This document shows, one piece after another, positions 1 through 43,500 of a stretch of DNA of 64,000 nt. Below the pieces are notes generated by a model that saw only the letters and a list, made by a program, of their open reading frames with translations, ran no database searches and was not told the DNA's origin. Origin of the DNA: Perna viridis (taxonomy: Eukaryota); contig CM074516.1 in NCBI GenBank assembly GCA_037379345.1, forward strand, positions 5,518,001 to 5,582,000. Reading direction: 5' to 3'. The first letter of the stretch is position 1; every line of letters begins with the position of its first letter. Both the position numbers and the translations under genes were made by a program.

Positions 1-80
1 ATGCTATTGTTTTCATATGTTAATTTGCTCTTAACTGAAACAAACACTCAACCCTCGAGGTAAAATAAGAAGGATAATTA

Positions 81-160
81 TCTGTATAATACTAGGTACA
101 TGTAATGTGCTAGTGTGTTATAAATCAATTAGCACTTACATGTGCTTGGAATTATGCAGA
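81..160 (+). ncRNA. pre-miRNA-like hairpin, type A (predicted 5p 92-114, 3p 130-151)
   Basis: TCTGTATAAT-A-CTAGGTACATGTAATGTGCTAGT-loop-ATTAGCACTTACATGTGCTTGG-A-ATTATGCAGA; CTAC at 169-172. Confidence 0.75.
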
Positions 161-238
161 TTTTCTTTCTACAGTTAACCCAACTTTCATTTTCTTTATT
201 TATTTTCAATTTTAAGTTAATCATTTATGAAGCATCTT

Positions 239-314
239 AAAGTGTTCTGCTTTTAGTACATGTTAGTGCTAGTGTTGGACTATACCACTAGTGCACCAAT
301 GAGTGGTTCATTTT
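239..314 (+). ncRNA. pre-miRNA-like hairpin, type C (8-nt deletion in 3' arm)
   Basis: 5' arm CTTTTAGTACATGTTAGTGCTAGTG; 3' arm lacks the ATTTCTAT seen in the copies at 1455 and 2254. Confidence 0.55.
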
Positions 315-406
315 GGAGCAAACACATCTATGATTACTGAATTTCTCATTGTTAATTGAAAAAAATAATTCTTAGCTTTTTTATCACCAAGTATTTTCTA
401 CAATTA

Positions 407-488
407 GCTCTTGACATTTCCAAGTACATATAATGTGCCAGTGTATATAATGCTACTAGCACTTACATGTGCTTGGAAAAGTGTGGGC
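407..488 (+). ncRNA. pre-miRNA-like hairpin, type B (predicted 3p 457-478)
   Basis: TTTCCAAGTACATATAATGTGCCAGT-loop-ACTAGCACTTACATGTGCTTGGAAA; CAAC at 494-497. Confidence 0.75.
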
Positions 489-713
489 ATAAACAACTCT
501 CTTTAACAAGCTTTCATTTAGAAACACACAAACACACAGGGATAAATTTCACCAGTGATTCTACTTTGTACCATCATCTATATGTCAATGTCTATGTAAG
601 CGTTTTTTGTATGAATGATTTTATGACTGCTGAGTTATGTATGTTTTAATCAAAAACTTCCTTCTATCATTTGTTTTGCCCTATAAGCACATCGTAGATA
701 ATGTGATTTGCTT

Positions 714-791
714 AGTGTACTGCTTTTAGTACATGTAAGTGCTAGTGTTTAATTAACCACTAGTCCTCAGGTGTACAAAAAGTGTTGCACT
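714..791 (+). ncRNA. pre-miRNA-like hairpin, type C'
   Basis: AGTGTACTGCTTTTAGTACATGTAAGTGCTAGTG...CACTAGTCCTCAGGTGTACAAAAAGTGTTGCACT; CTAC at 798-801. Confidence 0.65.
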
Positions 792-918
792 TTAAAGCTA
801 CTGATTTCAGGTCATCTTTCAACATTTGTTTTTTTTTTATAATATGTTTATTTGCATTCCAACTTAACCATTTACTCCCCAAAATATCAAGGTTGCAAAA
901 GACCATATCTAAAAATAG

Positions 919-998
919 TCTGCATAATTCTGGGCACATGTAATGTGCTGGTGTGCAATTAATCAATTAGCACTTGCATGTGCTTGGAATTATACAGA
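919..998 (+). ncRNA. pre-miRNA-like hairpin, type A
   Basis: Paralogue of 81-160; GGCAC replaces GGTAC (U:G to C:G pair). Confidence 0.7.
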
Positions 999-1088
999 TG
1001 CTCTTTTTCAGAAATCCAAACTTAACTTTGATATTCTGTCCTTCAACTTGTTTTTCATGTTGCTCTTCATTGATGATTCAAACATCTC

Positions 1089-1175
1089 AAAGTGCTCTAC
1101 TTTTAGTACATGGTAGTGCTAGTGGTGAAATATATCACTAGTATTTCCCTGCACTCATCATGAGTGGTTCATCTT
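1089..1175 (+). ncRNA. pre-miRNA-like hairpin, type C
   Basis: CTTTTAGTACATGGTAGTGCTAGTG...CACTAGTATTTCCCTGCACTCA. Confidence 0.6.
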
Positions 1176-1253
1176 TTAAGTTATTCCATGACAAATATCA
1201 TACCAAAGAAAACAGTGGTTCAGATTGGTATTTTAGAAGTATATTCTTCAATG

Positions 1254-1334
1254 GCTCTGACATTACCAGGTACATATAATGTGCCAGTGTATATAATTCT
1301 ACTAGCACTTACATGTGCTTGGAAATGAATGTGC
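1254..1334 (+). ncRNA. pre-miRNA-like hairpin, type B
   Basis: CCAGGTACATATAATGTGCCAGT...ACTAGCACTTACATGTGCTTGG. Confidence 0.7.
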
Positions 1335-1454
1335 TATGTAAGAAATGTTCCACTGACACTTGTATGTAACATTATGTATGTGATTTTCTTTCTTAATTTT
1401 CAATTCTAACAAGTTTTTTTAATGTAGCTAGTCATTTATGAAGCAAGCATCTTA

Positions 1455-1537
1455 AAGTGTTCTGCTTTTAGTACATGTTAGTGCTAGTGTTAAAACATAC
1501 CACTAGTATTTCTATGCACTAATGAGTGGTTCATCTT
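1455..1537 (+). ncRNA. pre-miRNA-like hairpin, type C
   Basis: AAGTGTTCTGCTTTTAGTACATGTTAGTGCTAGTG...CACTAGTATTTCTATGCACTAATGAGTGGTTCATCTT. Confidence 0.7.
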
Positions 1538-1621
1538 CAAAGCAATTCCATTTTTATCACAGCATGACAAATTTCATATCAAAGACCACAGATATGTAGA
1601 TCAGTATTTTTTTCTACAATG

Positions 1622-1702
1622 GCTCTTACATTTCCAAGTACATATAATGTGCCAGTGTATATAATTCTACTAGCACTTACATGTGCTTGGAAATGAATGT
1701 GC
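1622..1702 (+). ncRNA. pre-miRNA-like hairpin, type B
   Basis: CATTTCCAAGTACAT...ATGTGCTTGGAAATG. Confidence 0.7.
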
Positions 1703-1878
1703 TATGTAAGAATTGTTCCACTGACACTTATGTGCCATTATCTATTGGTAATGAAGCATGTAACACTTTGCCTGAATATCACTTTTATCACTGCTTAATA
1801 ATGCCTATTTTTAACATCAAAAACTTTTTTCCTATATATATATGTCTGCCCTAATGAGCTTCTTTTGAAAATATACTT

Positions 1879-1953
1879 AGTGTACTGCTTTTAGTACATG
1901 TTAGTGCTAGTGTAATAGACAACTAGCTCACTTGACCAAAATAGTGTTTCACT
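1879..1953 (+). ncRNA. pre-miRNA-like hairpin, type C' (diverged 3' arm)
   Basis: Invariant 5' arm; 3' arm AACTAGCTCACTTGACCAAAATAGTG. Confidence 0.55.
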
Positions 1954-2062
1954 TTAAATATTTTGATTTCAGTTTTCTATCATATTGTATATTGCCTTTA
2001 CACTTCAACCATTTACTCACCTCAATACTAAGTTGCAAAAAGATCATTCATCTGAAAATTTG

Positions 2063-2142
2063 TCTACATAATACTAAGTACATGTAATGTGCTGGTGTGC
2101 AATTAATCAATTAGCACTTGCATGTGCTTGGAATTATGCTGA
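2063..2142 (+). ncRNA. pre-miRNA-like hairpin, type A
   Basis: CTAAGTACATGTAATGTGCTGGT...ATTAGCACTTGCATGTGCTTGG; CTAC at 2150-2153. Confidence 0.7.
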
Positions 2143-2253
2143 TTTTTTTCTACAGTTAACTGAATTACACAACAACTTTTTCTTTTTTAATTTTCAATTG
2201 TAAATTTTGAAGTTTTTTTAATGTAGCTAGTCATTTATGAAGCAAGCATCTTA

Positions 2254-2336
2254 AAGTGTTCTGCTTTTAGTACATGTTAGTGCTAGTGTTGAAATATACC
2301 ACTAGTATTTCTATGCACTAATGAGTGGTTCATCTT
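2254..2336 (+). ncRNA. pre-miRNA-like hairpin, type C
   Basis: Near-identical to 1455-1537 except in the loop. Confidence 0.7.
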
Positions 2337-2634
2337 CAAAGCTATTCCATTTTTATCACAGCATGACAAATTTCATATCACAAATTTCAAAAGACCACAG
2401 AAATATAATCCTACTAGCACTTACAAGTGCTTGGCAAAGTGTGAGCATAAACATGTACATAACCTCACTAGTTTTTACCAGCTTATTGAAAAAAAAAACA
2501 TAAGCTTCTGATAAAATATGCCACAACGCTTTAATTTTTGAAGATCATTAAAAACTTCTATTATTTGTTTTGCCCTATTAGTGCTTCTAAGAAAATGTAA
2601 TTTGCTTAGTGTACCGTTGTTAGTATATAATAGC

Positions 2635-2712
2635 CTGCATAATACTAAATACACGTAATGTGCCGGTGTGCAATTAATCAATTAGCACTAACATGTGCTT
2701 GGTATTATACAG
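2635..2712 (+). ncRNA. pre-miRNA-like hairpin, type A (3p UAGCACUAAC variant)
   Basis: CTGCATAATACTAAATACACGTAATGTGCCGGT...ATTAGCACTAACATGTGCTTGGTATTATACAG. Confidence 0.6.
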
Positions 2713-2809
2713 ATTCTCTTCTTCAGAAATCCAAACTAAACTAGAACTTTAAATTTCTTTCAACCAGTTTTTCGTGTTGCTCTTTATTTATGATTCAAAC
2801 ATCTCAAAG

Positions 2810-2884
2810 CACTTTTAGTACATGTTCGTGCTAGTGTTGAAATACACCACTAGTATTTCTATGCACTAATGAGTGGTTCATCTT
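2810..2884 (+). ncRNA. pre-miRNA-like hairpin, type C
   Basis: CACTTTTAGTACATGTTCGTGCTAGTG...CACTAGTATTTCTATGCACTAATGAGTG. Confidence 0.6.
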
Positions 2885-3262
2885 TAAAGCTATTTAGTTT
2901 GTATGACAACATGACAAATGTGATATAAAACACAACAGGAGTCAGATTGGTATTTTGTAAGCATATTCTACAATGGCTCTAAGTACATGTAATGTGGCAG
3001 TGTATATAATCCTACTAGTGCTTGGAAATGTATGGGCATAAACAACCACTCAACAGTTTTCATTGAGAACCACATGATTAGAGCAGGTTGATTCTTTTAT
3101 TTAATCTTAGTGTTTGGGATAAATCAGTAATACTTGTAATGCAATTATTCATTCTCCGCTATATTTTTTTATGACTGCCAAGTTTGCTTGCTTTTAACAT
3201 CAAATCTTTCCTGCTTATATTTTACGCCTTCTTTTAGCATTCTAGGAAAATGCAATGTGCTG

Positions 3263-3341
3263 AGTGTAATGCTTTCAGTACATGTTAGTGCCGGTGTAAA
3301 ATTGGACCACAAGTACTTATGTGTATTTAAAGTGTTTCACT
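3263..3341 (+). ncRNA. pre-miRNA-like hairpin, type C' (diverged)
   Basis: AGTGTAATGCTTTCAGTACATGTTAGTGC...GTACTTATGTGTATTTAAAGTGTTTCACT. Confidence 0.55.
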
Positions 3342-3504
3342 ATAGACTGATTCAATTCCTTTGTTAATTGTTATCTATCATTTGTTACTTGCCTTTATTT
3401 GCATTTAAACTTCACCTTTTCTCATCAATATGGTAACATAAAGATTACCATTTGTATAATATTAGGTACATGTATTGTGCTGTTATGCAGCAACCAATTA
3501 GTAT

Positions 3505-3735
3505 TAACATGTGAATGGAATCATGTGGATTCTTTTTTACATATCCTAATTAGCATATGCATTGAATCATGTGGATTCTTTTTTTACATATCCTAATTAG
3601 CATGTGCATGGAATCATGTGGATTTTTTTTTTACATATCCTAATTAACATATGCATTGAATCATGTAGATTCTATTTTACATATCCTAATTAAGATGTGC
3701 ATGGAATCATGTGGATTCTCTTTTACATATCCTAA
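3505..3735 (+). repeat. ~46-47 bp minisatellite, 5 copies, arising from the 3' arm and flank of a decayed type A hairpin
   Basis: Units CATRTGCATKGAATCATGTGGATT(C)TnACATATCCTAATTAR; the CATATCCT motif ends at 3547, 3594, 3641, 3687 and 3733. Confidence 0.9.
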
Positions 3736-3771
3736 CTATACAATAACTTTTCATGATGTTCTTCCTTCTAA

Positions 3772-3850
3772 AAGTGTTCTGCTTTTAGTACATGTTAGTG
3801 CTAGTGTTGAATTATACCACTAGTATTTACATGCACTAATGAGTGGTTCA
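3772..3850 (+). ncRNA. pre-miRNA-like hairpin, type C
   Basis: Invariant 5' arm; 3' arm CACTAGTATTTACATGCACTAATGAGTGG. Confidence 0.7.
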
Positions 3851-3917
3851 ACAAAGCCATTCCGCTTGTATGAGAAAAATGATTCAGACTTGTATTCTGT
3901 AAGCATGATCTACAATT

Positions 3918-3990
3918 GCCCTAAAGTACATATAATGTGCTGGTGTATATAATCCTACTAGCACTAACATGTGCTTGGGAAAGTGTTAGC
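3918..3990 (+). ncRNA. pre-miRNA-like hairpin, type B (lower stem shortened)
   Basis: AAGTACATATAATGTGCTGGT...ACTAGCACTAACATGTGCTT. Confidence 0.55.
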
Positions 3991-4282
3991 ATCTACATGC
4001 ACATAACTCACTGGAATAATACCAGTTTTTAAAAGAAAAAAACACTAAACAATATAGAGCTTTATATCTTAGGGTTATTGATCAACCATACAACAGAAAT
4101 TGTTTATGCTACTAGTTTTTTTATTGTTTTTGATTTTAGTATAATAACATTGTATGTACAACAAAGTAATTTGACTTTTCTATGCTGATTTATACACGTT
4201 TTTAAACCAAGAACTTATAAAATTTCCCTCTTCTAACTTTATCCTTTTCACTCTGAATAAAGAACATGCAATTTGTGTATGC

Positions 4283-4356
4283 GAGACACTTTTAGTACAT
4301 GTTAGTGCTAGTGTAAAATTGGACCACTAGTACTTATGTGTACTAAAAAGTGTTTT
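4283..4356 (+). ncRNA. pre-miRNA-like hairpin, type C' (near-perfect stem)
   Basis: GAGACACTTTTAGTACATGTTAGTGCTAGTG-loop-CACTAGTACTTATGTGTACTAAAAAGTGTTTT; CCAC at 4366. Confidence 0.7.
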
Positions 4357-4478
4357 ATTTTGAAGCCACTGATTTCACTTAAATTGACACACATTCTCAT
4401 ATTGTGATTATCTCACTATATATGTATTCCTCCCACAAAAACTACCCTCATCCACAAAGTAAAATCATAAAAAATAAT

Positions 4479-4556
4479 CTGTATATTACTAGGTACATGT
4501 AATGTGCTGGTGTGCAATTGATTAATTAGCACTTACATGTGCTTGGAATTATGCAG
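4479..4556 (+). ncRNA. pre-miRNA-like hairpin, type A
   Basis: CTAGGTACATGTAATGTGCTGGT...ATTAGCACTTACATGTGCTTGG; CTTC at 4565. Confidence 0.7.
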
Positions 4557-4971
4557 TGGTTCAACTTCAAAGCTATTGCATTTTTATTGCAGCATGCTGA
4601 TTCTTTGTAAAATTGTGTTTTTATTGGCATATTATGCATGAGCTTTGGATTATTTTCTTGAAGATTGAAATTGTTCTGCATTAAAATGAATGCATAATGT
4701 GACTACATGTATAAACATTCTATCATTTACATGTGCCAGGTGTAAGTTTGGAACTTCACTTGCAAGAAAGTTATCTTCCACTACTCTTGTTGCTTCATTT
4801 CAATCATCTTGAGTTTTGTTAATACACAGTATATTGCCAGTAATAGATTGTACCAATATTACTTTATTTGCCAATGAGCGAGTCATCAAGTTATTGATTT
4901 CAAGAAAACTTAAAAATGCTTGAAAAAATGGGCATTAGTATAAGCTCTCATTTGTTTTCCTTGCCAAAAAT

Positions 4972-5051
4972 AAAGCTCTGCTCTTAGTACATGTTAGTGC
5001 TAGTGTTGAATTGTATCACTGGTAATTATATGTTCTAAGAAGTGGTTCTTT
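4972..5051 (+). ncRNA. pre-miRNA-like hairpin, type C
   Basis: CTCTTAGTACATGTTAGTGCTAGTG...CACTGGTAATTATATGTTCTAAGAAG. Confidence 0.65.
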
Positions 5052-5130
5052 AAAAGCAACACATTACTCACTTCTGTCACTGTAAACAGTTGGTACAACA
5101 CATCTGTATTAAACATGATTTAATTCTGCA

Positions 5131-5260
5131 GCTCATACATTTCCAAGTACATATGCAGTGCCAGTGTGTATATATGTTCTAAGAAGTGGTTCTTTAAAAG
5201 CAACACATTACTCACTTCTATTGAAAACTAGCACTTACATATGCTTGGAAATGTGTGGCT
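5131..5260 (+). ncRNA. type B hairpin with a 49-nt insertion in the loop
   Basis: Both arms intact; 5171-5219 is an exact copy of 5027-5075. Confidence 0.5.
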
Positions 5261-5476
5261 AGAAACTACAAATGAAATCCATCCACAAAAATCTAAAAAA
5301 ATGAGCACACTGGCCCATCTATTTTTTCTTCTTATATCTCTCTAGCATGAATTATCTCGAAAGGTTTCACAACCATTCGAAATGCTTTTTATTCTTAAAT
5401 AGAGAAGCAAACATCCTTACTCTCACAAATATACCTTTCCAAGGTGGAATTCAATCCAGTGAAGTGAAAGCTTTGA

Positions 5477-5553
5477 TGTTCTGCTTTTAGTACATGCTAG
5501 TGCTAGTACTAAATTGAACTACTAGTTCTTACATGTCCTTAAAAACAGTTCAT
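5477..5553 (+). ncRNA. pre-miRNA-like hairpin, type C/C'
   Basis: CTGCTTTTAGTACATGCTAGTGCTAGTA...TACTAGTTCTTACATGTCCTTAAAAACAG. Confidence 0.55.
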
Positions 5554-5755
5554 ATAAAAGCAATTCAGTTTTAAGTCATTGTTTGCATAGGTAGTGTGCA
5601 ACTTGTACATGCTTGTAGTACATGCTTGTGCTACTGTCAGATCTATATTGAGGTGTTCATTTCAATGATTTTCTCTTTACTGTCATATCTATTTTAAATT
5701 GATATGCAATGAACAATTCAAAAGTCTAGTATTTTCATCTACACTATAAATTTAA

Positions 5756-5835
5756 CTCAAACATTTCCAAGTACATATTATGTGCCAGTGTATATAATCG
5801 TACTAGCACGTAAATGTGCTTGGAAAAGTGTGGGC
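5756..5835 (+). ncRNA. pre-miRNA-like hairpin, type B (3p UAGCACGU variant)
   Basis: TTTCCAAGTACATATTATGTGCCAGT...ACTAGCACGTAAATGTGCTTGGAAA. Confidence 0.65.
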
Positions 5836-5997
5836 ACCTACACATAAGTATACATTAAATTCACTTACTTTCCCTAGTTAATTTGTTTTATTCAGATTAT
5901 ATTGATGGGTGCTCTACCTTAAGTACATGCTTAGTAATCATTAGGTCTTTTCTTTTTTGACTAAATGTTATCCTTCTTATGCTTTCTGAGCTTCTAC

Positions 5998-6085
5998 ACT
6001 GTATAAAACTAGGTACATGCTGAAATATGTGCTTTAGTGCAGTAAAAAATCAACTAGCACTTACCTGTGCTTGGTGTTATGCAGT
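5998..6085 (+). ncRNA. type A hairpin, 5' arm with insertion
   Basis: ACTGTATAAAACTAGGTACATG...CTAGCACTTACCTGTGCTTGGTGTTATGCAGT. Confidence 0.5.
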
Positions 6086-6360
6086 CATCTATTATCAAGA
6101 CTGGACAAATACAAGTATGGATCTAGGCCAATAGTACGTTTCACAAATTTGCTATCACTAGTTCTCTCATGCAAGGCACCCCTACTATGATGGTTCAAAC
6201 AGATATTCAGTGTTCTACTTATAGTACACATTAGTGCTAGATTTGATTTGTACTATTAGCACTATTTAGTACTTGTGATTCATATGAATCAATTCGAACT
6301 TCGAACTACAGAACACGTCTTTTGTTTTCTTTGATCTATTTATGCTATTGCAAAAAATAC

Positions 6361-6443
6361 AATCTATATAATGCTAGGAACATGTAATGTGCTGGTGTGC
6401 AATTATCAACTAGCACTTACATGTGCTTTGAATTATGCAGATT
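6361..6443 (+). ncRNA. pre-miRNA-like hairpin, type A
   Basis: AATCTATATAATGCTAGGAACATGTAATGTGCTGGT...ACTAGCACTTACATGTGCTTTGAATTATGCAGATT. Confidence 0.65.
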
Positions 6444-6696
6444 CTTTCTAGGAAACCAGGGAAGAGTGAGTGTCTGTCACTGTTTTTCTCAGTTAAATAC
6501 ATCACATTTTACAGTTTGTACTAACTTTTCTTAAAATACATACCATGGCAGTGTATATAATCTTACTAGCACTGACATGTGCTTGATAAAGTGTACTTTT
6601 GAAAAGTTGGTCCTTATACCAGAAATACTTATGGATGCAAGTAATTTTGGGGCATTTCTTAACTAGGGGCCACAATGATATTTATAAGGACTAGCA

Positions 6697-6778
6697 ATCC
6701 TTACCTTTCCAAGTATAAGTAATTTGCTGGTGTGTAAAATATAACTAGCACTTACATGTGCTTGGATAGGTCTGGGTT
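6697..6778 (+). ncRNA. pre-miRNA-like hairpin, type B-like
   Basis: ACCTTTCCAAGTATAAGTAATTTGCTGGT...ACTAGCACTTACATGTGCTTGGATAGGT; 3' arm invariant, 5' arm diverged. Confidence 0.7.
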
Positions 6779-7117
6779 TGTCTCTCTTCTACATCACCAC
6801 TAAAGTACACATTTCAGCAAATGTTGTGGATAAACCTTTAGTCAAAAGTCAGAAGTACTTGTTTATTTATACAATATTGAATGAGGGTTCCACATGTATT
6901 TCAAGACACATTACATCATTGCATCTCATCTTAATTTAAGGACTATTGTTCTGGTCAAGTTAATTATTGCTGAACATTCCAAGCATATTTTTCCAAGTCA
7001 ATTTGAAATCCAAATTCCAAGCATAAACTTTCATAACACAGATAGTGTGCTGAAGGAAACAAAATGAACTAGCACTAACCCTTGCTCTTTAACACTCTTT
7101 TTCCACCATTATAAAAC

Positions 7118-7200
7118 ACATGGTCTGCCTTTAGTACATGACAAGTGCTAGTGTTTATATATACTACTAGCACTAAGCATGTTCTATAAGTATGTCATGT
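7118..7200 (+). ncRNA. pre-miRNA-like hairpin, type D (3p UAGCACUAAGCAUGUUCUAUAA, 7168-7189)
   Basis: ACATGGTCTGCCTTTAGTACATGACAAGTGCTAGTG...TACTAGCACTAAGCATGTTCTATAAGTATGTCATGT; CTTC at 7205. Confidence 0.7.
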
Positions 7201-7385
7201 TTCACTTCTCTGGGTGTTATATACTATCTCTTATGTCTTAAATATCTGAAGCAAGCACTTGTTATGTCCTCAGTTGTTGGTAATGTAGAAATTTACCCCT
7301 TAATAAGTTGATACATACGATACTGGTAGTTCTTGACACATGTTGGATTTAATATTTCAACTGTCCAGCTGGTAAAGTTTACTTA

Positions 7386-7460
7386 TCTGTATAATTCCAA
7401 GTACATGTGCTGGTGTGCATAAAAAAATTTAGCACTTACATGTGCATGGGATTATGCTGG
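7386..7460 (+). ncRNA. type A hairpin, 5-nt deletion in 5' arm
   Basis: TCTGTATAATTCCAAGTACATGTGCTGG...TTAGCACTTACATGTGCATGGGATTATGC. Confidence 0.5.
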
Positions 7461-7618
7461 TAACAGTGCACTGTTCTTTCATAACAAAGCACGGTCAACT
7501 ATAGTGCTTGTTTACATTAACTATTAACACCATGTATGTTCTACTAGGAAGTTGATGCACATCTTCCACTAAATGTAAATTACCATTTTTACACTATTAC
7601 TACTATCATTAAAAAAAA

Positions 7619-7700
7619 GCATAGCCTGCTTCTACTACATGACAAGTGCTAGAGTCTATATTTCCTACTAGCACTAAGCATGTTCTACAAGTATTTCAAG
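7619..7700 (+). ncRNA. pre-miRNA-like hairpin, type D
   Basis: TACATGACAAGTGCTAG...CTAGCACTAAGCATGTTCTACAAG; CATC at 7706. Confidence 0.6.
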
Positions 7701-7870
7701 TTTAACATCTTCCATTTATAAAACTAACAATACCTTTTCTTTAACAATGTCTTTGGCACTAATCAACTTCATAATATTTAATAACAGGCAAATCAATCTC
7801 TGACTGAGTATGCACATTTTTTATTCATGCTACTGAAATGTTGACTTCAGCAGTTCAGTTGACTTTCTAA

Positions 7871-7948
7871 CCTGTATAATACTAGGCACATGTAATGTGC
7901 TAATGTGTTATCATCAATTAGCATTTCATGTGCTTGGAGTTATGATGG
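7871..7948 (+). ncRNA. pre-miRNA-like hairpin, type A
   Basis: CTAGGCACATGTAATGTGCTAAT...ATTAGCATTTCATGTGCTTGG. Confidence 0.6.
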
Positions 7949-8287
7949 TGACAGTGCAGTTGCAGTTTTCCATCATTCAAAAAATCTACTAGAATTACCA
8001 CTAGTATCACTGTATCACTTCTGTATTTTGAATTACTCAAAAATGTATGGTATGCTTTTAGTACATGACAGTATCTTACTAACACTAAGCATGTTCTACA
8101 AATATGTCAAGTTGCAATTCAGAAGAATACTTAATTTCTCCACTATATAATTCTTTCACAATCTTTATGTATGTAAGAATATCACTGGCACTAAGCACAC
8201 TCTTCTAGTAAACTACAAAGCACACCTTCACCTTACATAAACAGTGATTAGATCTTTTTTTCAATTTTACAATTTTATCAGTTTCTC

Positions 8288-8370
8288 TATGATGTATTAC
8301 TTAGTACATGACAAGTGCTAGTGTTAACATATACTACTAGCACTAAGCATGTTACTACAAGTATGTCATG
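8288..8370 (+). ncRNA. pre-miRNA-like hairpin, type D
   Basis: TATGATGTATTACTTAGTACATGACAAGTGCTAGTG...TACTAGCACTAAGCATGTTACTACAAGTATGTCATG. Confidence 0.65.
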
Positions 8371-8499
8371 ATGTAATCCTTCTACTCAGTGAAACTTCCT
8401 GTACAGAATTCTCAGTACCTTACTAGCACTAAGCATGTTCTATTAACTATACCCAATTTACAATTTTATCACTTTCTTCAAAATGTATCACTTAAGAAT

Positions 8500-8582
8500 G
8501 CATAGTCTGCTTCTAGTACATGACAAGTGCTAGTGTTTACATGTATTTCTAGCACTAGGCATGTTCTACAAGCAAGCCATGT
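8500..8582 (+). ncRNA. pre-miRNA-like hairpin, type D
   Basis: TGCTTCTAGTACATGACAAGTGCTAG...CTAGCACTAGGCATGTTCTACAAGCA; CATC at 8587. Confidence 0.7.
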
Positions 8583-9212
8583 TTCTCATCTTTCACAAGT
8601 AAGTATGTGACAAACACTGGTGCAAAAATAAACTATTAGCAGTTAGCATGTTCAAGAACTATGACATGTTCATCTTCATCAAATATTTCCCCATTTAACC
8701 TCACTTTTTTACATTCTTGTAGTGAGTTGTCTCAATGTCATTATCTTGCTTATTGTGATAATGCCATGTTAGGAGTGTGTGGTACATATTTCATTTAATA
8801 TGGAGTTCGTGGGATTCGTTTGGAAGTTGTTTGACTTCTGTCGACTAGTTTTGTCATACTTGGAGTGTCAGTCAGGGTTACATGATCTTGACAAATCATT
8901 GCACTTCTTTTGTTATCCCCTTATCATTGCCTGTTCTATTTATAGAACTGTTAAAAATAAAATAGTTGCACTGTGAGAGTTCTAACAATACGATATTTTC
9001 ATTTGTATTGGTGATTTTAAATGTAGAAAGAGTAACAGTCAATGTGCTGTCCTTGTAAATCACAAAATAAATGCTTTCTGCAAAAGTATGTAAATTGTGC
9101 TAAAGCACTTGTTTTGTGCTTATATCCAGTCTGTAATAAATATACTTAACTTGCATGTGTGATTTTCATGTCAAGTGACCGAGGAATACACCCAATTTCC
9201 ATTGTTAATACA

Positions 9213-9296
9213 TTCTCTTTACTTCTCCTGGTACATTATAGTGCTGGTGTGTAAAGTTTTACTAGCACTTACATGTGCTTGGAAAAGTTTGGGATT
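9213..9296 (+). ncRNA. pre-miRNA-like hairpin, type B-like
   Basis: ACTTCTCCTGGTACATTATAGTGCTGGT...ACTAGCACTTACATGTGCTTGGAAAAGT; CTTC at 9301. Confidence 0.7.
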
Positions 9297-9404
9297 CCTG
9301 CTTCATTTTCCAAATCTGTGATGGTGTTTTTCTTTCTTGTGCACCTGGTGCTGAGTTATCTTTTAGTCTGGTTCATTTATTTTGGAAATTTGACCCATGA
9401 ACAG

Positions 9405-9628
9405 TCTGGAACTGTTGTGATGATTTGTGTTTCTAGAAGCTATCAACTGGTACTGTTACAATGATGTGTTTCTAAAATGTATCAACTGGGACTGTATGGA
9501 TGATTTGTGTTTCTAGAAGATATCAACTGGGACTTCCGTGGTGATTTTTGTTTTTAGAAGCTATTAACTGGGACTGTTTGGATAATTTGTGTTTCTAGAA
9601 GGTATCAACTAGGACAATGATTTATGTT
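9405..9628 (+). repeat. ~41-bp minisatellite, ~5.5 copies
   Basis: Repeated CTGGGACTGT...GATTTGTGTTTCTAGAAGNTATCAA. Confidence 0.85.
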
Positions 9629-9660
9629 CCTTAATGTTCATGTGCATTTCAACATAGTTT

Positions 9661-9746
9661 TATTGTGTTATGCCTTTAGTACAAGGTGAGTGCTGGTTAG
9701 ATGATATAACACCTGCACTAATCTTGTTCTGTATGTATGACAAATA
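9661..9746 (+). ncRNA. most distal, diverged type D-like hairpin
   Basis: TAGTACAAGGTGAGTGCTGGT...ACCTGCACTAATCTTGTTCTG; CATG/CATG replaced by CAAG/CTTG (compensatory). Confidence 0.6.
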
Positions 9747-14156: not shown

Positions 14157-14562
14157 ATTAGTCATTATCAAGTCTGAATCACACCTGCGTTTGATCAGAC
14201 GCATTTTTTGACATACTACAAATTTTATTAATCAAGCGCTGGAATGATAAAGATCAAATTTCCTTGATAAACATTTGAGGAAAATATTGTTGCTCAATTA
14301 CAATTTCACAGTTAAAAAAACGCAGAAACGAAAAGCTGATGACAAGGCATCAGACCTACTGATTAGTCATCATCAAGTCTGAATCACACCTGCGTTTGAT
14401 CAGACGCATTTTTTGACGTACTACAAATTTTATTAATCAAGCGCTGGAATGATAAAGATCAAATTTCCTTGATAAACATTTGAGGAAAATATTGTTGCTC
14501 AATTACAATTTCACTGTTAAAAAAACGCAGAAACGAAAAGCTGATGACAAGGCATCAGACCT
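14157..14562. repeat. Recent ~201-bp tandem duplication (period 205)
   Basis: 14157-14357 and 14362-14562 differ at only a few positions. Confidence 0.95.
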
Positions 14563-22786: not shown

Positions 22787-23671
22787 TTACAAAACAATAC
22801 AAACAGCTGAGCCGTCCACGGAATCTATAGTGTCTGACGGTCTTTTAATCACGTTACGACGATGCTCTCCGACCAATTCCTCTGGATTTTTTAGCAAATG
22901 GAGTATGTGCTTATGGCCATACTTGATGGCAGCACCATAAAGAGTCAAAGGCGAATAAGGTTCAAAGTAACTCTCTCTGTGTGAAAGGTCAGACGTTGCA
23001 AGATCTACTTCGTGGTGAAGTAACAAATAGCGCATGCGTTCCTCATCACCTGCTATGGTCGCGTGAGCAAACTCAATGGAAGCCTCATTTTGCAATAACA
23101 TTTTAACAATTTTGTCACATGCGTTTTGTTCCTTGGCGTATTCAATCAGAGATTTGTTATTCCTAGAAATGTTAATCCTGCACCACGACTTGACTAGGAC
23201 GTTCGTTTTGAAAGCTTTGTCATTTTCAACGGCATCCCAATACCCTGGCGCGAATTTTTGATAGGCGCTGGTTAATTCAAAACCTGATGGCCCACTGACA
23301 CTGCGGAGTAATTCCAGTTCGACTTCTTTATCACAAGAAGCGCCGCATTTTACAAGTGCCAGCATAACTTCCATCAGAGCCTTACCGATAGCAAAGTGAA
23401 GAGGTGAGATTCCTTTCATGTCTGGTGTATCTAGTTTTGCCCCCGCGTTTGACAATTGATACACCATTGGGATATATTTTCTTTCAATACCAAACGAGGC
23501 AAATGCGCTAATCACGTGCAGGAAAGATTGGCCAGTTTTAGAACATGTTCTGTTAACATCCTCACCTCCTTTGATGCTAGCTAGAAAGACTAGACTATCC
23601 TTGGACAGAATTCCTTGGAAAAGCTTCGTTTTCACGAATTCCTCCTCATAATCTCGAAGTATTTTATCCAT
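22787..23671 (-). CDS. Intronless ankyrin-repeat protein (294 aa) with C-terminal CaaX (CIVL)
   Basis: Uninterrupted ORF; ANK motifs GEDVN..GQSFLH, GAKLDTPDMKGISPLHFAI...LVKCGA and LYGAAIKYGHKHILHLL; ends SAVCIVL*. Confidence 0.85.
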   Translation of the reverse strand: MDKILRDYEEEFVKTKLFQGILSKDSLVFLASIKGGEDVNRTCSKTGQSFLHVISAFASFGIERKYIPMVYQLSNAGAKLDTPDMKGISPLHFAIGKALMEVMLALVKCGASCDKEVELELLRSVSGPSGFELTSAYQKFAPGYWDAVENDKAFKTNVLVKSWCRINISRNNKSLIEYAKEQNACDKIVKMLLQNEASIEFAHATIAGDEERMRYLLLHHEVDLATSDLSHRESYFEPYSPLTLYGAAIKYGHKHILHLLKNPEELVGEHRRNVIKRPSDTIDSVDGSAVCIVL

Positions 23672-26600
23672 ATAGTGTCTAATGGAACCACTACGGTACC
23701 CATCGGTACGCCAAAATCAACCTGCCACCATAAAACGACCTGCGGTCGAGTTGTTTGACGACTGATAAAACACAGTCGTTTAGATAGATGTTAATTGAAT
23801 AGTGCCAATATCACACTCAATTAAATAGTTTTCATTAGGAATTTCTATTAAGTTAAACTGGCCTTATTTAACATATCAATATTGTATCCAATTAATTAAA
23901 TTCACAGACAAATAATTAAACATCCCTTCAGTTAAACACTAACACTTCACATTTCATTTTGTTCTTTACGGAATCGCATGTCAATTCAAACTGAAGAACT
24001 GCTACCGAACGAAACAGACTTAGATATTTTGGTAGTGAAGTTTCCAATATACATAACAGTAAATACACAAACAATGGAAAATATTTCAACTGTACGATGT
24101 GTACATATAGGTAAAGTTATTTAAATCTATTCACCGCGTATTTATACATTCAGGCCTGTACAAGCACACTTCTATAATCAAATTTAAAACCCTATTGAAA
24201 AGAACAACGGTGAAAGATTGTGGTATATGGAAGATTGGTTGCCTTTTCAATATAAATTTTTCATAACTTTTCTCTAATTCGCTTTCTGTCGATATCTCTG
24301 CTATTATGTTCAGTTTTTGCCATTCAGAGAAGCAATTCTTCTCAATAATTAATCATTTACGCTAATTTGAAGCAATCAAATAACCAAAGAAAGTATCTTT
24401 ATATAGCTCTAATTCTCCATAGTTATCTTAATTAACCCCCAATTTATCATTCGTTTGGTAATACAAACGTGCTGAAATCAAGAATTTTTTTTTCTCCAAG
24501 GAAATCTGAGTCATTGCTCTATTAAAAAACAGCATAGTGAACTTGTTTTCAGTTGGAAATTGCGGAACTATTTTGTTTTGGGCTTTGCATGTTTGTGTGA
24601 GGGGGTTAAATTGATGTGCCACTTGTCTTGGATTCCATTTACATATATTACATAAAAGTTGTGCCACAAATCTTGGAATTGTCTTTTTTAAGACGACTGT
24701 ACATCTAACACATCTGCTGTGTGGAAATATAGTGTTATTTGGTCAATTATGTAGTGTAGGATTTCAGTAAGCACGAAAGAGGCATGGAATCCAGTTGCAA
24801 ACTCAACTCGTTTCATGTGCTTTATGTATAAACGTAACAGAAAATAATGCTACGGTGGGAAATGAAAAACCAGAAAACTAGTATCTTCTGGAGGACTAAA
24901 TCGGACTATCAGTCCTAACCACCTAACACTATTTTCTCAGAGTTATTGTGTATATATGCATGTATAATACATCACTTTCTTGATAAAATCGCGGACACTC
25001 TCCCCCAAATAATTAAAAGCTGGGTGCAGACGTAGGCTAGCTAACTCATCGCAGACAACACTCGTGGTCAGTTCACCCACCATTGGCTGTTATAATCTAT
25101 CGTTTTGGTGTTGCTTAGAGTTGTAAATGTGCTTATATATGTCGGCCAAATAACTTCAGAGCTTACCTTAAGCGCCGATCTTAAATAAACTTTATTCTTG
25201 TTACCCCCCCCCCCCCACACACACACACTTTTGCGGGAAGTGTATACAGATCACACCCGTAGTCAGGACCCCTCCCCCTTAAAGTCGAAGTTCTGTTTGA
25301 TTTGTGACGATTAAAGTCGAGGTGTAGGACTCCCTCCGCGAGTCTAAGACCCCCTCTAAAAATTCATGCCTACGGGTCTGTTGAGATCGTGCCGTACGTC
25401 CGCCCCAAGATTCAAATTCGGCCGCAATGTTTTTTTTTTATTGTTCAGTTATATTATTATTGGGTAGTATATTCCCACTAGTGTACAAGATCGTGTGTCA
25501 ATAATTATAGAAAACCAATAAACGACTAGATTCATGACAAAGGTTAAAAAATGTAGACAAAACATTGACAAAGTATATACTCCTTCAGTAAACAGTAATT
25601 ACGATCATTATTTTTTGTTGTTGGTGTCTGTATTAACTAAACCGTTTTCTACATATTTTAATATTTTAATACATAAGTAATACTCAGATCTGATAATATT
25701 CTGTCCTTGTCAACAGAAATTTCATTTATCGTACAAAATTAATGCCATTTAAATATCTTCAAACTAAGAAAATATGCGGATACATCACAAGGAGTTCGTG
25801 AATTTAGATATATGCCGAAAATTCGAAGTATAAACTTTTATCAGCATTCGACCTTAATTTGTTATAATATTTATAAAATAGAGAAGTATTGGTAAACGAA
25901 GTTGCATTGAGGCAAGAAAGTCCCTGGTTTAGGGCTGATTGCAAAGCTATGTGAAGCGCAGAAGATCAACAGTAATGAAATTTGACAAAACTGGATATTT
26001 TTGGCCTTTAAGAGCAAACCAGCTAACATCATTGACTTTAATAGCCATTTTAATGATTTGTACTATTCAAGTAATCTTTAAACCATAACTGGTACATGAA
26101 AGATTAGTGTCAAGGTGAAAGTTTAGGTTAAAAGCATGCATCATTCATTTTGCAACATCCATGTAAAAGCTATAGAATCAATGGCCTGTTTTTGTAACGC
26201 TAAACGTTGAAGTTCGGGGTCAGAGGTTAAAATGAATTCGTCAAATTTTCAAACAAGGAAATTTGTAAGGACTTAGGCACCGACCATTTTTATATTGAGG
26301 GGGGAGGGGGTAAAAAAATAATGTTGTATTCTGTTTTTCATAAGAAAAAGTTTAGGAATAAAAAAAAAGTAGAAACAAAAGGAAAAAGGAGAGGAGAGGA
26401 ATCTCATGTACATATAGTGAATGTATCATAAACTGCCATTTAACGTGTTAAATTATGTAGAAAGAAGAATGTAACAAATGTCTTTAATATCAACATTTTA
26501 CGGTTTATAGTCGCAAAATTCATGATGTTATAATGAGCAACTAAATGGATATCAAAATGCTTAAGGAGGGTAGCCCTGCTTGATACAAGTTTCCAGTTAC

Positions 26601-31950: not shown

Positions 31951-32150
31951 TGTAGGAGATTCTCCCTCATTGTGCTGTCCCATGTAGGCGATTCTCCCTC
32001 ATTGGCAGTCTCATGTAGGAGATTCTCCCCCATTGGCACTGTGTCATGTAGGAGATTCTCCCCATTGGCATTGTCTCATGTAGGAGATTCTCCCCTTTGG
32101 CACTGACTCGTGTGAGAGATTCTCTCCCACTAGCACTGTCTCATGTGGGA
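31951..32150. repeat. ~32-33 bp minisatellite, ~6 copies
   Basis: Repeated CATGTAGGAGATTCTCCCCCATTGGCACTGTCT. Confidence 0.9.
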
Positions 32151-40500: not shown

Positions 40501-43500
40501 ATAGATAATCAGTTGACAATTTTAACTCATTGCACAACACCAATTTTATGTCAAGATAATTTGAGCACAAGTTGTTGTATAAAACACCATCAAGATTAAT
40601 TAATGGGATACATGTTTCATCCAAAAAAAAAAAAAAAAATCAACAAATGCAACCTGAGGAATGAGAACTGAAAAATATATTCTTAAAGCCTTCCTATATT
40701 TGTAAGTAATTTTTCATTCTTTATTGCAGATTTTTGCAAGATTTTGTTAGACATTTTTGTATTGCTTATACATTTACAATTTCATGTTTACTGTCTAAGA
40801 TGGCATCTTCAATTTTTTTTTAATTGCAATTTGTACCTTACAGTACCACTGCCAAGTCAGAAGAGAATCCATCAAGGATACCTGTAGTCAACCAACTAAC
40901 CTTCCTTGGTCAGGCCTTCAGCAGAATGGTGGATCTTTGTTTAGGACATATGACACAGGTTTGTTAGCATTATGTTAGTTTTTTTAGACATACAGTACAC
41001 CTTGGCTGCATCTTGCCTTTCCCCACTGTCCACGATGGAAGTGGATACATAACTTTCTATATTTGGTAACATATATTTGGTTTACATTATTTCTCCATAA
41101 TTATTTATTAAATTTAAGTTAAGATTTCAACATGACAGCTTTAGTAAGCATGTTCAGATCTTAATTTTAGCATAGAGAGTGGTGACTTAATTTAAGTCAA
41201 GAATACGCTGAAATAGAATCAGTTTTTCTTATGAAATCTGTAGAAACTTGGAAAATGTTAAATGGTTGGAAAAGTCTCACAGAAATTCAATCAACTCCCA
41301 GTTTTTAAAAAGTCAAATGCATCTTTAATCACCAGCTTTGAAAGTAAGAAATTGTTATTTTGTTGCTTTGACATTTAGACTAAAGAAATGTTTCCCCACC
41401 AGGATGAAAAATGTCAACTCAAGACCAAGTGTATGTAATGCTTGAGAAGTGGAAAAATATTATAGTAAACTTAACTAAAACATGAAAAAAGTCAAAAAAA
41501 TTATCACATCTGAAGCTGATATTACAATAACTGGAATCTGGTATCTTTGTTTATGTCTGAATAAGGTCTATTGCTGATGTCTACTACAGTATGCCTTGCA
41601 GTGACCATCTTTCATGAATATTAGGAATAAGTATGACCAGTGTAATGTTAATCTTTTATTTCTACATTTCAGAAAATCATCACTACATTAGATGAAGCTA
41701 ATGAACCAGCAACATTAGCTACAGCAATGAGAACCATAGTTACTCTAGGGTTAGAGGGAGAACATATGTGTTACATTATTGCAAGGGTAAGCTTGTAAAT
41801 TTAGGACGTGGGTGTTATAATATCGCAAAAGCATGGAAAGCACAGTATTATATCAGAGTGGGGAGAATACTGCAACTTATTCATGATTATATCCTCTATT
41901 TTTGTTGAAAAACCAAATTATCTTGCATGTCACCCAGCCTTACAGCTAGTTTCTTTTAATGAATGATGAATTTTTAATTAATATCTCCTTTATTTTTCTA
42001 ACACAGGAAGGAGGAGTAAGAGCCTTGTTAGAAATCTGCAGGACTGAATCATTAGAGTTTGCACATTGTCAAGCACTGAGAGCTTTAGCCACCATATCAT
42101 GTGTTGCAGAGAGTCTGTTTGAAATAGAAAAGGTAACATGTGCATTAATTTACCACATGTAATTCTATGCTCTAAACCTTGTTGTGTCTAGTTTAATATT
42201 CATAAATGAGTTCATTTAAATAATTAGAGAATAATCCCAACTGTCTACACCAGACAGGAAAATTTAATTGTTTACAAAATCATACTATTTGTAAGCTAAC
42301 TATATGAAGTAGGTTTCTTATTTTAAAGTTTTTTGTCTTTCCGAAGTTTTGTTACAATGGAAATATATTTGCTGTGATAAAGTTTTAGTTTATTCCTATA
42401 TGCAGGAAGGTGGTGTAGAGACATTGATAGAGATTTTATGTGACACTACTGTAGGAGAAAAGGTCAGAGGTGAAGTAGCAGGTGTTATTGCACAGATTAC
42501 TTCCCCTTGTTTAGAAAATTACCAACAGATGTCAGACCTAGTTGACAATTTAGAGGATCTTCTCAGGGCTTTATTAGGTATTTTTATATTACAGTCGAAC
42601 TTCACTCGCTCGAACTCAGATGGCTCAAACACCTGGGATTTCTCGAACACAATCCAAAGTACCAAACTTTTATACTATATAATTAATAGAAATAACCTTT
42701 AATTTCTCGAACACTTGAACCAACTTGTCAGTCCGTTCAGTAATAAATCTTAGAGAATAACCCACACTAACTTGAACTTGTCAGCTTGGGTAATAAAAGG
42801 TGTGCAAAACTGAAACACTATCACTAATCAAAGTGTCATTTTAGTTAATTACAGGTAATATTTTGTTTATCACTAATTAGGTAGTTTTAATATAACATAA
42901 TACTGAGTGATGTTGGAGAGTGTTCCAAAGTTGGCATAATGTAAGCATAAAAAAATTAGATGGAAACAAATTATTGACCAAGGAACTTTAACTCTGAAAG
43001 TTTTTCAAAAGCAAACACATCATTTTTAATGTCCATAAATCAAAATAACTATCCAAAAACTTATTAACAGAGAACAAATAAAACCTTTGTAGAAAGTATG
43101 CAATTTTTAACTATAAAGCCAATGTCCGAAAGATATCCAGAAAAATAATGAACTTACTTAATGAACTCCCAGTAACTCTAACACATTTCAATGATCCCAT
43201 GGAGTTTGAGCTACCAAGGTTTGACTGTATATATGAAGAAGAATTAAAATAAAAATAATATTTGAGGTTTCTTCTTATCTGGCATAGAATGATTTGTGCA
43301 ACATTGCATATTTTTGGTGAGAGGTACAATGTAACATGAAATTTCCACATATTTGTCTTCACAAGTAAATATCAAACTCCTCATGAAAAAGTACCCATGG
43401 GACAATAATGCAGCGTTGAATTTCTGTTCAAAATAAATTGAGAGAGCACACTCTAGCATTGATTCTGTATAGGACTGGGGAGCACACAAAAAATTTAAAA

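Follow-up and report, generated by a model that had tools for sequence, protein, structure and literature searches.

Opposite arm conservation among interleaved copies of a microRNA-like hairpin array in Perna viridis

The window analyzed here (64,000 nucleotides of Perna viridis contig CM074516.1, positions 5,518,001 to 5,582,000) raises the question of whether copies of one ancestral hairpin can come to supply two different microRNAs from opposite arms. A first-pass annotation of window positions 239..5553 had proposed such arm switching, with C/C' hairpins conserving the 5' arm, A/B hairpins conserving the 3' arm, and the two types in near-strict alternation. The sequences and coordinates it quoted are correct. 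The array extends beyond the end of its range, and two of its own A/B examples (6697 and 9213) lie outside that range. The tandem array of a single pri-miRNA-like hairpin spans 79-9745 (+) with 37 full and 9 partial copies and may continue upstream of window base 1. Up to ~5550 the repeat unit is A-C-B-C', such that every second copy in the first half of the array lacks the family 3p seed on one arm, while beyond this point there is a mixed A/B/D/E tail. The copies are as follows.

92..151, +, A hairpin (5p 92-114, 3p 130-151, seed AGCACUU)
252..310, +, C hairpin (5' arm 252-273 has the modal sequence; 3' arm with deletion)
420..478, +, B hairpin (3p 457-478)
725..782, +, C' hairpin (5' arm 725-746)
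930..989, +, A hairpin
1102..1160, +, C hairpin (3' arm with insertion)
1266..1324, +, B hairpin
1467..1525, +, C hairpin
1634..1692, +, B hairpin
1890..1945, +, C' hairpin (modal 5' arm; loop and 3' arm deletions; poor fold)
2074..2133, +, A hairpin
2266..2324, +, C hairpin
2400..2436, +, partial B copy (reduced to loop and 3' arm)
2604..2632, +, partial C' copy (5' stub joined to the flank of A 2645; typed by eye)
2645..2704, +, A hairpin (seed AGCACUA)
2814..2872, +, C hairpin
2979..3037, +, damaged B copy (3' arm with deletion)
3274..3332, +, C' hairpin (sole C' with altered predicted 5p seed)
3462..3520, +, degenerate A copy (3' end seeds a 46-bp tandem repeat, 3503-3735)
3784..3842, +, C hairpin
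3922..3980, +, B hairpin (seed AGCACUA)
4291..4349, +, C' hairpin (best pairing among C-type copies)
4489..4548, +, A hairpin
4700..4742, +, A/B-type remnant (typed by eye)
4983..5041, +, C hairpin (5p first base C, facing G)
5143..5250, +, B copy (loop carries a 49-nt insertion)
5486..5544, +, C' hairpin (final C-type copy)
5614..5636, +, remnant 5' arm, C-like
5767..5825, +, B hairpin
5920..5935, +, short 5' arm remnant (typed by eye)
6009..6076, +, A copy (5' arm with insertion)
6220..6278, +, E hairpin (22-nt 5' arm and flanks C-like; 3p seed AGCACUA retained)
6374..6432, +, A hairpin
6545..6588, +, partial B copy
6709..6767, +, B hairpin (the annotation's 6697)
7130..7189, +, D hairpin (5p seed UUAGUAC plus 3p seed AGCACUA)
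7397..7451, +, A copy (5' arm with 5-nt deletion)
7631..7690, +, D hairpin
7882..7940, +, A hairpin (deletion within seed)
8054..8100, +, partial D copy (internal deletion)
8300..8359, +, D hairpin
8410..8442, +, partial D copy (reduced to the 3' arm)
8512..8571, +, D hairpin
8618..8657, +, partial D-like copy
9227..9284, +, B-type hairpin (the annotation's 9213; 5' arm start of the oyster/L009/L013/L018 type)
9675..9734, +, divergent D hairpin (final copy of the array)

The copies fold as canonical animal microRNA precursors do, into imperfect hairpins with two 20-24 nt arms, an 8-40 nt loop and a lower stem, and their arms are conserved above the loop and flanks both here and across species. 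In 34 of 37 copies the arms lie 14-15 nt apart. The view that all derive from a single ancestral hairpin with plus-strand precursors was supported: folding is better on the plus strand for 17/19 A/B and 11/12 C/C' copies against a background of 49% of 150, with D/E copies having no preference (3/6). A UGU/GUG apical motif occurs in 32/37 copies, but overlaps the conserved arm end, and a CNNC motif is found in 19/37, a raw count without a background rate.

The same hairpin forms tandem arrays in 4 of 25 metagenome loci (L001, L009, L013 and L018), with 3p AGCACU in 12/14, 11/11, 11/12 and 2/3 of their full copies and both arms about equally conserved; none of the four contains a C-type class. 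Relatives are also found among Crassostrea gigas hairpins, namely m0314/m0316/m0317 on scaffold370 ("cluster 20") and m0338/m0342/m0345/m0347 on scaffold392 (Xu et al. 2014, PMC4138081). The m0316 3p product matches the A/B arm at 19/22 bases when compared by eye. In the supplements of that study, m0314, m0316 and m0317 have 3245, 4919 and 2941 3p reads versus 421, 227 and 334 5p reads (sums of supplement rows, with the m0317 totals also printed in the paper), which upholds the view that A/B produce the 3p AGCACU(U). At the second oyster locus, 5p reads are near or above 3p reads in 3/4 hairpins, albeit at low counts (52/0, 79/25, 9/30, 52/64); 3p use is thus not strict across the family, and any "switch" may be a matter of degree. 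Sequenced products of the oyster AGCACU hairpins are reported from blastula to D-larva only, and m0314, m0316 and m0317 have none in 8 adult organs. Products of both arms with uniform 5' ends and 2-nt overhangs are documented for oyster homologues, although some of these failed the overhang or read criteria of that study. Since the 3p seed is kept in oyster, in all four metagenome arrays and in A, B, D and E, outgroups identify 3p as the ancestral arm.

A search of the window against Rfam yielded 0 matches at the gathering threshold. The best score was 34.7 versus a cut-off of 80.5, and the weak sub-threshold matches were to mir-12 (28.1 versus 55), mir-1271 and mir-96. The mir-12 match is absent in the four metagenome arrays, and mir-252 is absent from the Rfam matches at E up to 10. 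With scores far under the gathering cut-offs, assignment to an Rfam family, including mir-12, mir-252, mir-96 and mir-29, was rejected. The seed of miR-252b (UAAGUAC, PMC4238352) gives it a similar 5p start, the C seed being one position different, and one A copy has UAAGUAC at 5p positions 2-8. MirGeneDB covers two bivalves (PMC11701709), and a name for the hairpin family may therefore exist there.

The claim that C/C' hairpins conserve the 5' arm and vary the 3' arm was strongly borne out, and all six of the quoted 3' arm variants were located (3p starts 1139/1504/2303/2851, 761, 1924, 4328, 5523 and 5020). Parsimony over a flank-plus-loop tree of the 12 copies counts 8 substitutions in the 5' arm versus 42 in the 3' arm (binomial p 1e-6), or 7 versus 25 (p 0.002) upon removal of the three copies with 3' arm indels; 5' arms have no indels. 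Relative to the modal 22-mer, six of the 5' arms are identical, five are one base off and one is three off. Mean pairwise distances are 0.060 in the 5' arm, 0.299 in the loop and 0.375 in the 3' arm, with outer flanks (0.49-0.51) and unrelated 22-mers (0.586) as yardsticks. Between C and C' the corresponding values are 0.064, 0.36 and 0.43, with 0.50-0.55 in the flanks. The duplicated blocks of the array are mostly 66-80% identical (one is 94.6%), and thus these 22-nt islands have been held against old divergence. C copies 1467, 2266 and 2814, the three most alike, have identical 3' arms and a 5' arm one base different; the asymmetry is therefore visible only across older duplicates. Across the 12 copies, one change in the 5' arm fell in positions 2-8 and four in positions 12-14, which resembles the profile of a guide strand.

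None of the 12 C/C' copies has AGCACU at 3p positions 2-7. As relatives retain this seed, its loss in C/C' is derived, and C/C' belong to the oyster AGCACU family by descent without its seed. By the oyster 5p register, the predicted C/C' 5p seed is UUAGUAC and the first base is U in 11/12 copies, although the start sits in a U run and 9/9 copies also share two invariant upstream bases, so the register could be off by one. We infer from conservation alone that 5p would be the dominant C/C' product. Predicted duplex-end stability favours 5p in 11/12 C/C' and likewise in 10/10 A copies, and so cannot discriminate A from C. With one arm stripped of the family seed and the other nearly unchanged, C/C' probably encode a second microRNA with different targets.

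The arm asymmetry of A/B is modest and weaker than that of C/C'. Among 14 intact copies, 28 substitutions fall in the 5' arm versus 12 in the 3' arm (p 0.018), whereas with all 19 copies, five of them damaged, the counts are 47 versus 32 (p 0.14, not significant). The 3' arm is less uniform than the "nearly invariant" that had been described: 6/19 are identical, 9/19 differ by 1-2 bases and 4/19 by 3-13. The A versus B distance is 0.15 in the 3' arm and 0.53-0.60 in the surrounding sequence. AGCACU is present at 3p positions 2-7 in 15/19 A/B copies, AGCACU(U/A), the oyster-family seed, occurs in 20/25 A/B/D/E copies, and the 5p first base is C in 17/19 A/B. The alternation of types is near-strict up to 5600, where 25 of 26 neighbours switch type (24 full copies plus 3 partial copies typed by eye; shuffle mean 13.5, with 0/20000 shuffles reaching 25), and decays beyond. 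It arises through duplication of the A-C-B-C' unit and, as a by-product of this, is not separate evidence.

A third hairpin class, D/E, had been overlooked. It combines the 3p seed (AGCACU in 5/6 copies) with a C-like 5' arm, and D keeps both arms equally (9 versus 13 substitutions). The p-distance to C/C' outside the arms is 0.37-0.52 for D/E and 0.62-0.71 for A/B, while D/E group with C/C' at 98% ultrafast bootstrap (98 columns, arms included). D/E are thus likely to represent an intermediate state. L001 is not close to C outside the arms (0.60-0.63), and its placement beside D/C rests on the arms. The 5p seed occurs on hairpins still having the 3p seed in 3/5 D copies and 14/14 full copies of L001, which fits a partition of arms among duplicates better than a sudden switch. 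Of the proposal that one hairpin gave two seed classes, the frozen 5' arm and derived seed loss of C/C' stand, but the 5p seed did not originate in C/C', being already in D and L001.

Several other explanations could account for some of these patterns. C/C' may have two active arms, or a new 3p as the main product (AGUAUUU in C, AGUACUU in some C'), with the 5' arm held by dual use and pairing as the 3p seeds diversify. C/C' 3p arms start with U in all but one copy, and the 3p shared by C (AGUAUUU at 2-8 in 5/7 copies, starting with U) could itself be loadable. The identical 3' arms of the close C copies, the oyster second-locus hairpins yielding both arms and the evenly kept D arms point the same way. 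However, there are seven different 3p 2-8 sequences among the 12 C/C' copies, 3' arm indels occur in 3/12 with none in 5' arms, and a common C 3p seed is expected given recent descent, making this scenario unlikely. Alternatively, the C/C' 5' arm, being near-complementary to the A/B/D 3p, could be a target or decoy by which the cluster regulates or destroys its own microRNA or transcript. A C 5' arm and an A/B 3p arm are predicted to form a duplex of -23 kcal/mol with an intact seed match, C/C' are strictly interleaved with A/B, and weak folds are seen in several C copies (C 252, C' 1890). Yet arms descended from one hairpin are complementary in any case. Positions 13-20, which would match the seed, changed 4 times versus once for 2-8, and the 3' arm still pairs (each G facing a C is unchanged, and at 4/4 sites facing a G the change is C to U); this pairing, together with the kept arm spacing, would hide the site. 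We consider this quite unlikely.

It is also conceivable that C/C' lie in inverted orientation and are expressed from the minus strand, so that their conserved arm is an ordinary 3p with AGCACUA and no arm switch took place. The reverse complement of the C arm indeed starts with the seed variant of D, L009, L013, L018 and oyster, whole-hairpin alignments of C to A, B or L001 score about the same forward and reversed, and a single inversion before amplification would suffice. This scenario is rendered very unlikely by the better plus-strand folding of 11/12 C/C' copies, by an excess of G-U over A-C pairs (24 versus 7 in 9 copies, which are not independent) and by the forward alignment of C to D and of D to A, B and L001; site-level wobble changes agree (6/13 sites for plus versus 1/7 for minus), though weakly by themselves. 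Lastly, the asymmetry could be neutral, if duplicates are recent, gene conversion has acted in patches or dead copies are decaying. The nine partial and five damaged copies do indicate fast turnover, one block is 94.6% identical, and the A/B test loses significance with all copies. Against this stand the C versus C' and A versus B distances, which are low in one arm and high around it, and conversion tracts would hardly be expected to stop at the arm boundaries, and to do so on a different arm in each of two lineages. A neutral origin is therefore very improbable.

We instead favour, with a probability of roughly 0.65, a ~40-hairpin early-embryo polycistronic cluster in which A/B release the ancestral 3p (AGCACU) and C/C' release a near-invariant 5p (predicted UUAGUAC) instead. 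The ancestral hairpin would have had a 3p guide and a 5p first base C. UUAGUAC would then have been acquired on the 5' arm with the 3p seed still intact, the state in L001 and D, and the 5p first base of the D/E/C lineage would have become U, giving a two-armed hairpin. A first-base U favours Argonaute loading. The 3p seed of C/C' presumably decayed mostly by G-U-preserving changes, leaving a passenger strand, and a pair of one 3p copy and one 5p copy would have doubled into A-C-B-C' and been amplified, providing two seeds at roughly equal dose from one transcript. By analogy to the oyster, expression may extend from blastula to D-larva, and the products might clear maternal or early mRNAs as fish miR-430 does. 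More tentatively, bivalves may possess their own miR-430-like early-zygotic system, with the AGCACU hairpin independently arrayed in several lineages. The mussel would have gained a second seed via arm partition between alternating copies, keeping all stages (3p only, both, 5p only) and making near-complementary products at a fixed ratio from one transcript. The hairpin family is a concrete candidate for a maternal-transcript-clearing microRNA in bivalve embryos, for which the papers searched contained no mollusc report, and it offers two predicted seeds to seek in decaying 3' UTRs of these embryos. These papers likewise contained no report of this hairpin family, its miR-430-like organization or a staged hand-over.

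Studies of arm switching usually compare read ratios before and after the change. With 37 paralogues plus outgroups, its steps can here be ordered and tested base by base. The closest known relatives, the oyster hairpins of PMC4138081, share the 3p seed AGCACU(U/A), a similar 5p and clustering, but number 8 listed hairpins versus ~40 here, and none of the oyster rows examined has a lost 3p seed with a fixed 5' arm as in C/C'. That study calls them oyster-specific and describes clustered mature sequences as differing and of different origins. Fish miR-430 clusters (PMC10417697) similarly consist of many tandem copies of a multi-hairpin repeat, which turn over and evolve in concert; they also have seed variants at position 8 and early zygotic timing (a timing predicted for the mussel from the oyster). 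The resemblance is one of workings: no homology to miR-430 was found for the mussel hairpin, and membership in miR-430/427/302 was rejected, as neither predicted product has AAGUGC at 2-7. The miR-430 seed is a different one, AAGUGCU, the reverse complement of AGCACUU, and miR-430 a/b/c have one common seed, whereas in the mussel the predicted product comes from the opposite arm in every other copy. Switching of the dominant arm among paralogues is itself already known, as in spider mir-3791 and mir-11942 (PMC4987109, citing de Wit 2009, Marco 2010 and Griffiths-Jones 2011), where duplicates of one hairpin likewise favour opposite arms. The spider cases described there rest on read ratios of single paralogues and the mussel case on sequence conservation. 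In the mussel, a whole 12-copy sub-lineage has lost the ancestral seed, the array itself contains the intermediates, and one repeat unit combines both types.

The family of microRNA-like hairpins, as delimited by motif search and folding of the window, is restricted to approximately 79-9745 of the + strand, where 37 full and nine partial copies form an array that is a real feature and, with high likelihood, a microRNA cluster. In 34 of the 37 copies, the arms are 22-23 nt long and lie 14-15 nt apart, with a lower stem. Copies were assigned to classes by eye from their flanks, and the assignments were afterwards checked on trees. The sequence AGCACU occupies 3' arm positions 2-7 in 15 of 19 A/B hairpins, five of six D/E hairpins, which join this seed to a C-like 5' arm, and none of the 12 C/C' hairpins. 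The predicted 5p seed UUAGUAC occurs in 11/12 C/C', 3/5 D, and 0/19 A/B hairpins.

The first-pass annotation had proposed that C/C' hairpins keep the 5' arm while the 3' arm varies, and a per-arm substitution count, made on a tree of flanks and loop, bears this out with 8 substitutions on the 5' side and 42 on the 3' side (p 1e-6); omission of the three copies with 3' arm indels gives 7 versus 25 (p 0.002). Six of the 12 C/C' copies have exactly the same 5' arm, from which 11 in all differ by no more than one base. The companion claim of a preserved 3' arm in A/B holds for the 14 intact copies (28 substitutions in the 5' arm versus 12 in the 3' arm, p 0.018), but weakens to 47 versus 32 (p 0.14) across all 19, when the five copies set aside (2979, 3462, 5143, 6009, and 7397) are counted too. 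Between subclasses, C and C' differ by 0.064 in the 5' arm versus 0.36-0.55 in the loop, 3' arm, and flanks, while A and B differ by 0.15 in the 3' arm, 0.28 in the 5' arm, and 0.53-0.60 elsewhere.

Relatives of the array establish the direction of this change. When metagenome contigs were scanned once with the A/B 3' arm, 25 loci matched. In four of these (L001, L009, L013, and L018) the same hairpin is repeated in tandem, with spacers that are unrelated. The remaining 21 gave a single match without the family hairpin and were taken as chance, although no judgment is possible for L025, which sits at the edge of its contig. Among the full copies, drawn respectively from 21, 13, 14, and 5 matches, the AGCACU 3p seed is present in 12/14, 11/11, 11/12, and 2/3; conservation is similar for the two arms, and none of the four arrays contains a C-type class. 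Since every outgroup retains the 3p seed, its loss in C/C' is derived, whichever tree is preferred. All 14 full L001 copies carry UUAGUAC with the 3p seed kept, and 13 of them begin the 5p with C. In a tree of 45 hairpins, C/C' is sister to D/E (98) with L001 next (91), a partly circular result given that its 98 columns include the arms; six damaged window copies were excluded and at most four copies were taken per other locus. Outside the arms, p-distances to C/C' are 0.37-0.52 for D/E and 0.62-0.71 for A/B.

The L013 array adjoins exons matching ATR kinase (2083-3033, on the strand opposite to the array), which makes this locus eukaryotic, and its resemblance to L018 suggests that the four arrays may represent three lineages. 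The minus strand of L001 also carries a second repeated element in five copies (near 272, 589, 1322, 1978, and 2309, minus-strand count), located directly before some of the main hairpins. The end of its 5' arm and the beginning of its loop match the family, but the outer stem is short and the inner pairing weak; the element is possibly a decayed or re-purposed copy, in parallel to C.

The window hairpins are likewise homologous to sequenced microRNAs of the oyster Crassostrea gigas. According to the accessible portion of PMC4138081, the scaffold370 hairpins m0314, m0316, and m0317 gave 3245, 4919, and 2941 3p reads versus 421, 227, and 334 5p reads (row sums), with reads from blastula to D-larva; the egg yielded one to three reads and the eight adult organs yielded none. 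At a second oyster locus, four hairpins had low read counts without an evident preference for either arm (5p/3p 52/0, 79/25, 9/30, and 52/64). That study, in the same portion, required unique precursor mapping, so that shared 3p arms may be undercounted, and it places the scaffold370 cluster antisense inside the host gene CGI_10025557. The 5p starts of these relatives set the register for C/C', whose 5p would begin UUUAG; this agrees with the seed UUAGUAC, one of the two 5p seeds that the first-pass annotation gave, of which a shift by one base within the U run is a possible variant.

The + strand folds better in 17/19 A/B, 11/12 C/C', and 3/6 D/E copies, against a background of 49% of 150 windows. 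In the C/C' 3' arm, two G opposite C are invariant and all four C opposite G have become U in some copies, which preserves + strand pairing. The 5p begins with C in 17/19 A/B and with U in 11/12 C/C' and 5/6 D/E copies; Argonaute prefers a 5' U and passenger strands a 5' C, according to the available text of PMC12802958. Duplex-end stability favors the 5p in 11/12 C/C', 10/10 A, and 2/9 B copies, and thus the end energies do not distinguish A from C. In the C copy at 4983-5041, 5p position 1 is a C opposite G; this paired substitution may shift loading back again. The D copies (7130-8571) fold about equally on both strands, either of which would yield an AGCACU-type 3p, and their 5' arm contains AAGUGCU, the miR-430 seed string, at positions 13-19.

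Several alternatives to 5p use in C/C' deserve consideration. These could be inverted copies whose conserved arm is an ordinary minus-strand 3p, and indeed the C arm, when reversed, looks like a typical 3p of the family, carrying the AGCACUA seed; the + strand folding preference argues against this, as do the forward-orientation resemblance of C to D and, weakly by itself, the wobble direction (6/13 sites on the + strand versus 1/7 on the minus), while whole-hairpin alignment to A/B, forward versus reversed, did not discriminate orientation. C copies could also load a 3p product instead, given that one loadable 3p start is common to five of seven. A role of the C arm as a decoy for the A/B product is possible in view of their predicted pairing at -23 kcal/mol, but the hairpin would hide the site and the seed-matching part is conserved no better than 5p positions 2-8. 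Neutral conversion does not account for conserved islands of 22 nt that lie on one arm in one lineage and on the other arm in the second.

The near-strict alternation noted in the first-pass annotation is evident up to 5550, where the copies follow a repeated A-C-B-C' order with local losses and doublings and 25 of 26 neighbors differ in type, a value reached in none of 20000 shuffles. However, this order was inherited from an amplified unit, as shown by duplicated blocks 200-990 bp in length; among the 18 listed, 17 are 66-80% identical and the remaining one is 94.6% identical. Alternation can also arise without arm partition, since the two hairpin variants of L009 alternate strictly and both keep the 3p seed. 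Smaller rearrangements include a 46-bp tandem repeat at 3503-3735, whose five copies grew out of the degenerate A copy at 3462 (from its 3' arm and flank), and a loop insertion (5168-5220) in the B copy at 5143, which is a duplicate of 3' arm and flank sequence from the C copy at 4983.

The surrounding DNA is AT-rich animal sequence (GC approximately 32%) with the following features.

Features of the window outside the hairpin family
22787-23716, minus strand: single ankyrin-repeat ORF, a mollusc-wide uncharacterized protein of ~290 aa
42313-42702 and 45225-45554, plus strand: exons, presumably inscuteable-like
62450-62989, 54955-55682, and 63653-63967, all minus strand: a reverse-transcriptase-like ORF fragment and two mutually similar ORF fragments, the latter two of which we take to resemble bivalve TRIM/beta-propeller pieces
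9406-9615, 14157-14562, 31951-32150, and 43596-44167: ordinary minisatellites with periods of 41, 205, 32, and 33 bp, respectively

All named matches of the ankyrin-repeat ORF are mollusc, the closest being from Mytilus (~74%), which points to a probable origin of the window in a mussel-family bivalve outside Mytilus. Exon 42313-42702 has no match among solved structures. The window shares no neighboring genes with L001, L009, L013, L018, or L025, and no ATR exon was found in it.

Rfam returned only sub-threshold matches over the window, none at the gathering score. Descent from mir-12 was rejected, as the likeness appears in one alignment and L001, L009, L013, and L018 have no mir-12 match; a likeness to miR-252b has one seed mismatch and no Rfam support. 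A search of the literature, covering mostly open papers, gave no report of the family across bivalves or of this arm partition. The arm sequences matched no literature text, no mollusc microRNA paper was among the matches listed for short seed strings, and none of four motifs was present in the supplements of PMC7773633, PMC11067994, and PMC12750733. Zebra mussel preprint supplements could list the family, which may already be named, since MirGeneDB includes bivalves according to the part of PMC11701709 available.

Most likely, the array would be a polycistronic early-embryo cluster, presumably processed from a single transcript in P. viridis, with two products: an ancestral A/B 3p and a derived, probably dominant C/C' 5p. 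D hairpins would use both arms, and we speculate that the cluster might clear maternal mRNA. The predicted arm partition has, in our estimate, a probability of roughly 0.65. The accessible portion of PMC4138081 regards the oyster copies as oyster-specific and mutually unrelated. Fish miR-430, from which the window array differs in seed and to which no homology was found, forms tandem early-zygotic clusters from multi-hairpin units, as the available part of PMC10417697 describes. Arm switching between paralogues is already documented in the portion of PMC4987109 at hand, and for the window array the partition of a two-armed hairpin among duplicates is the better description.
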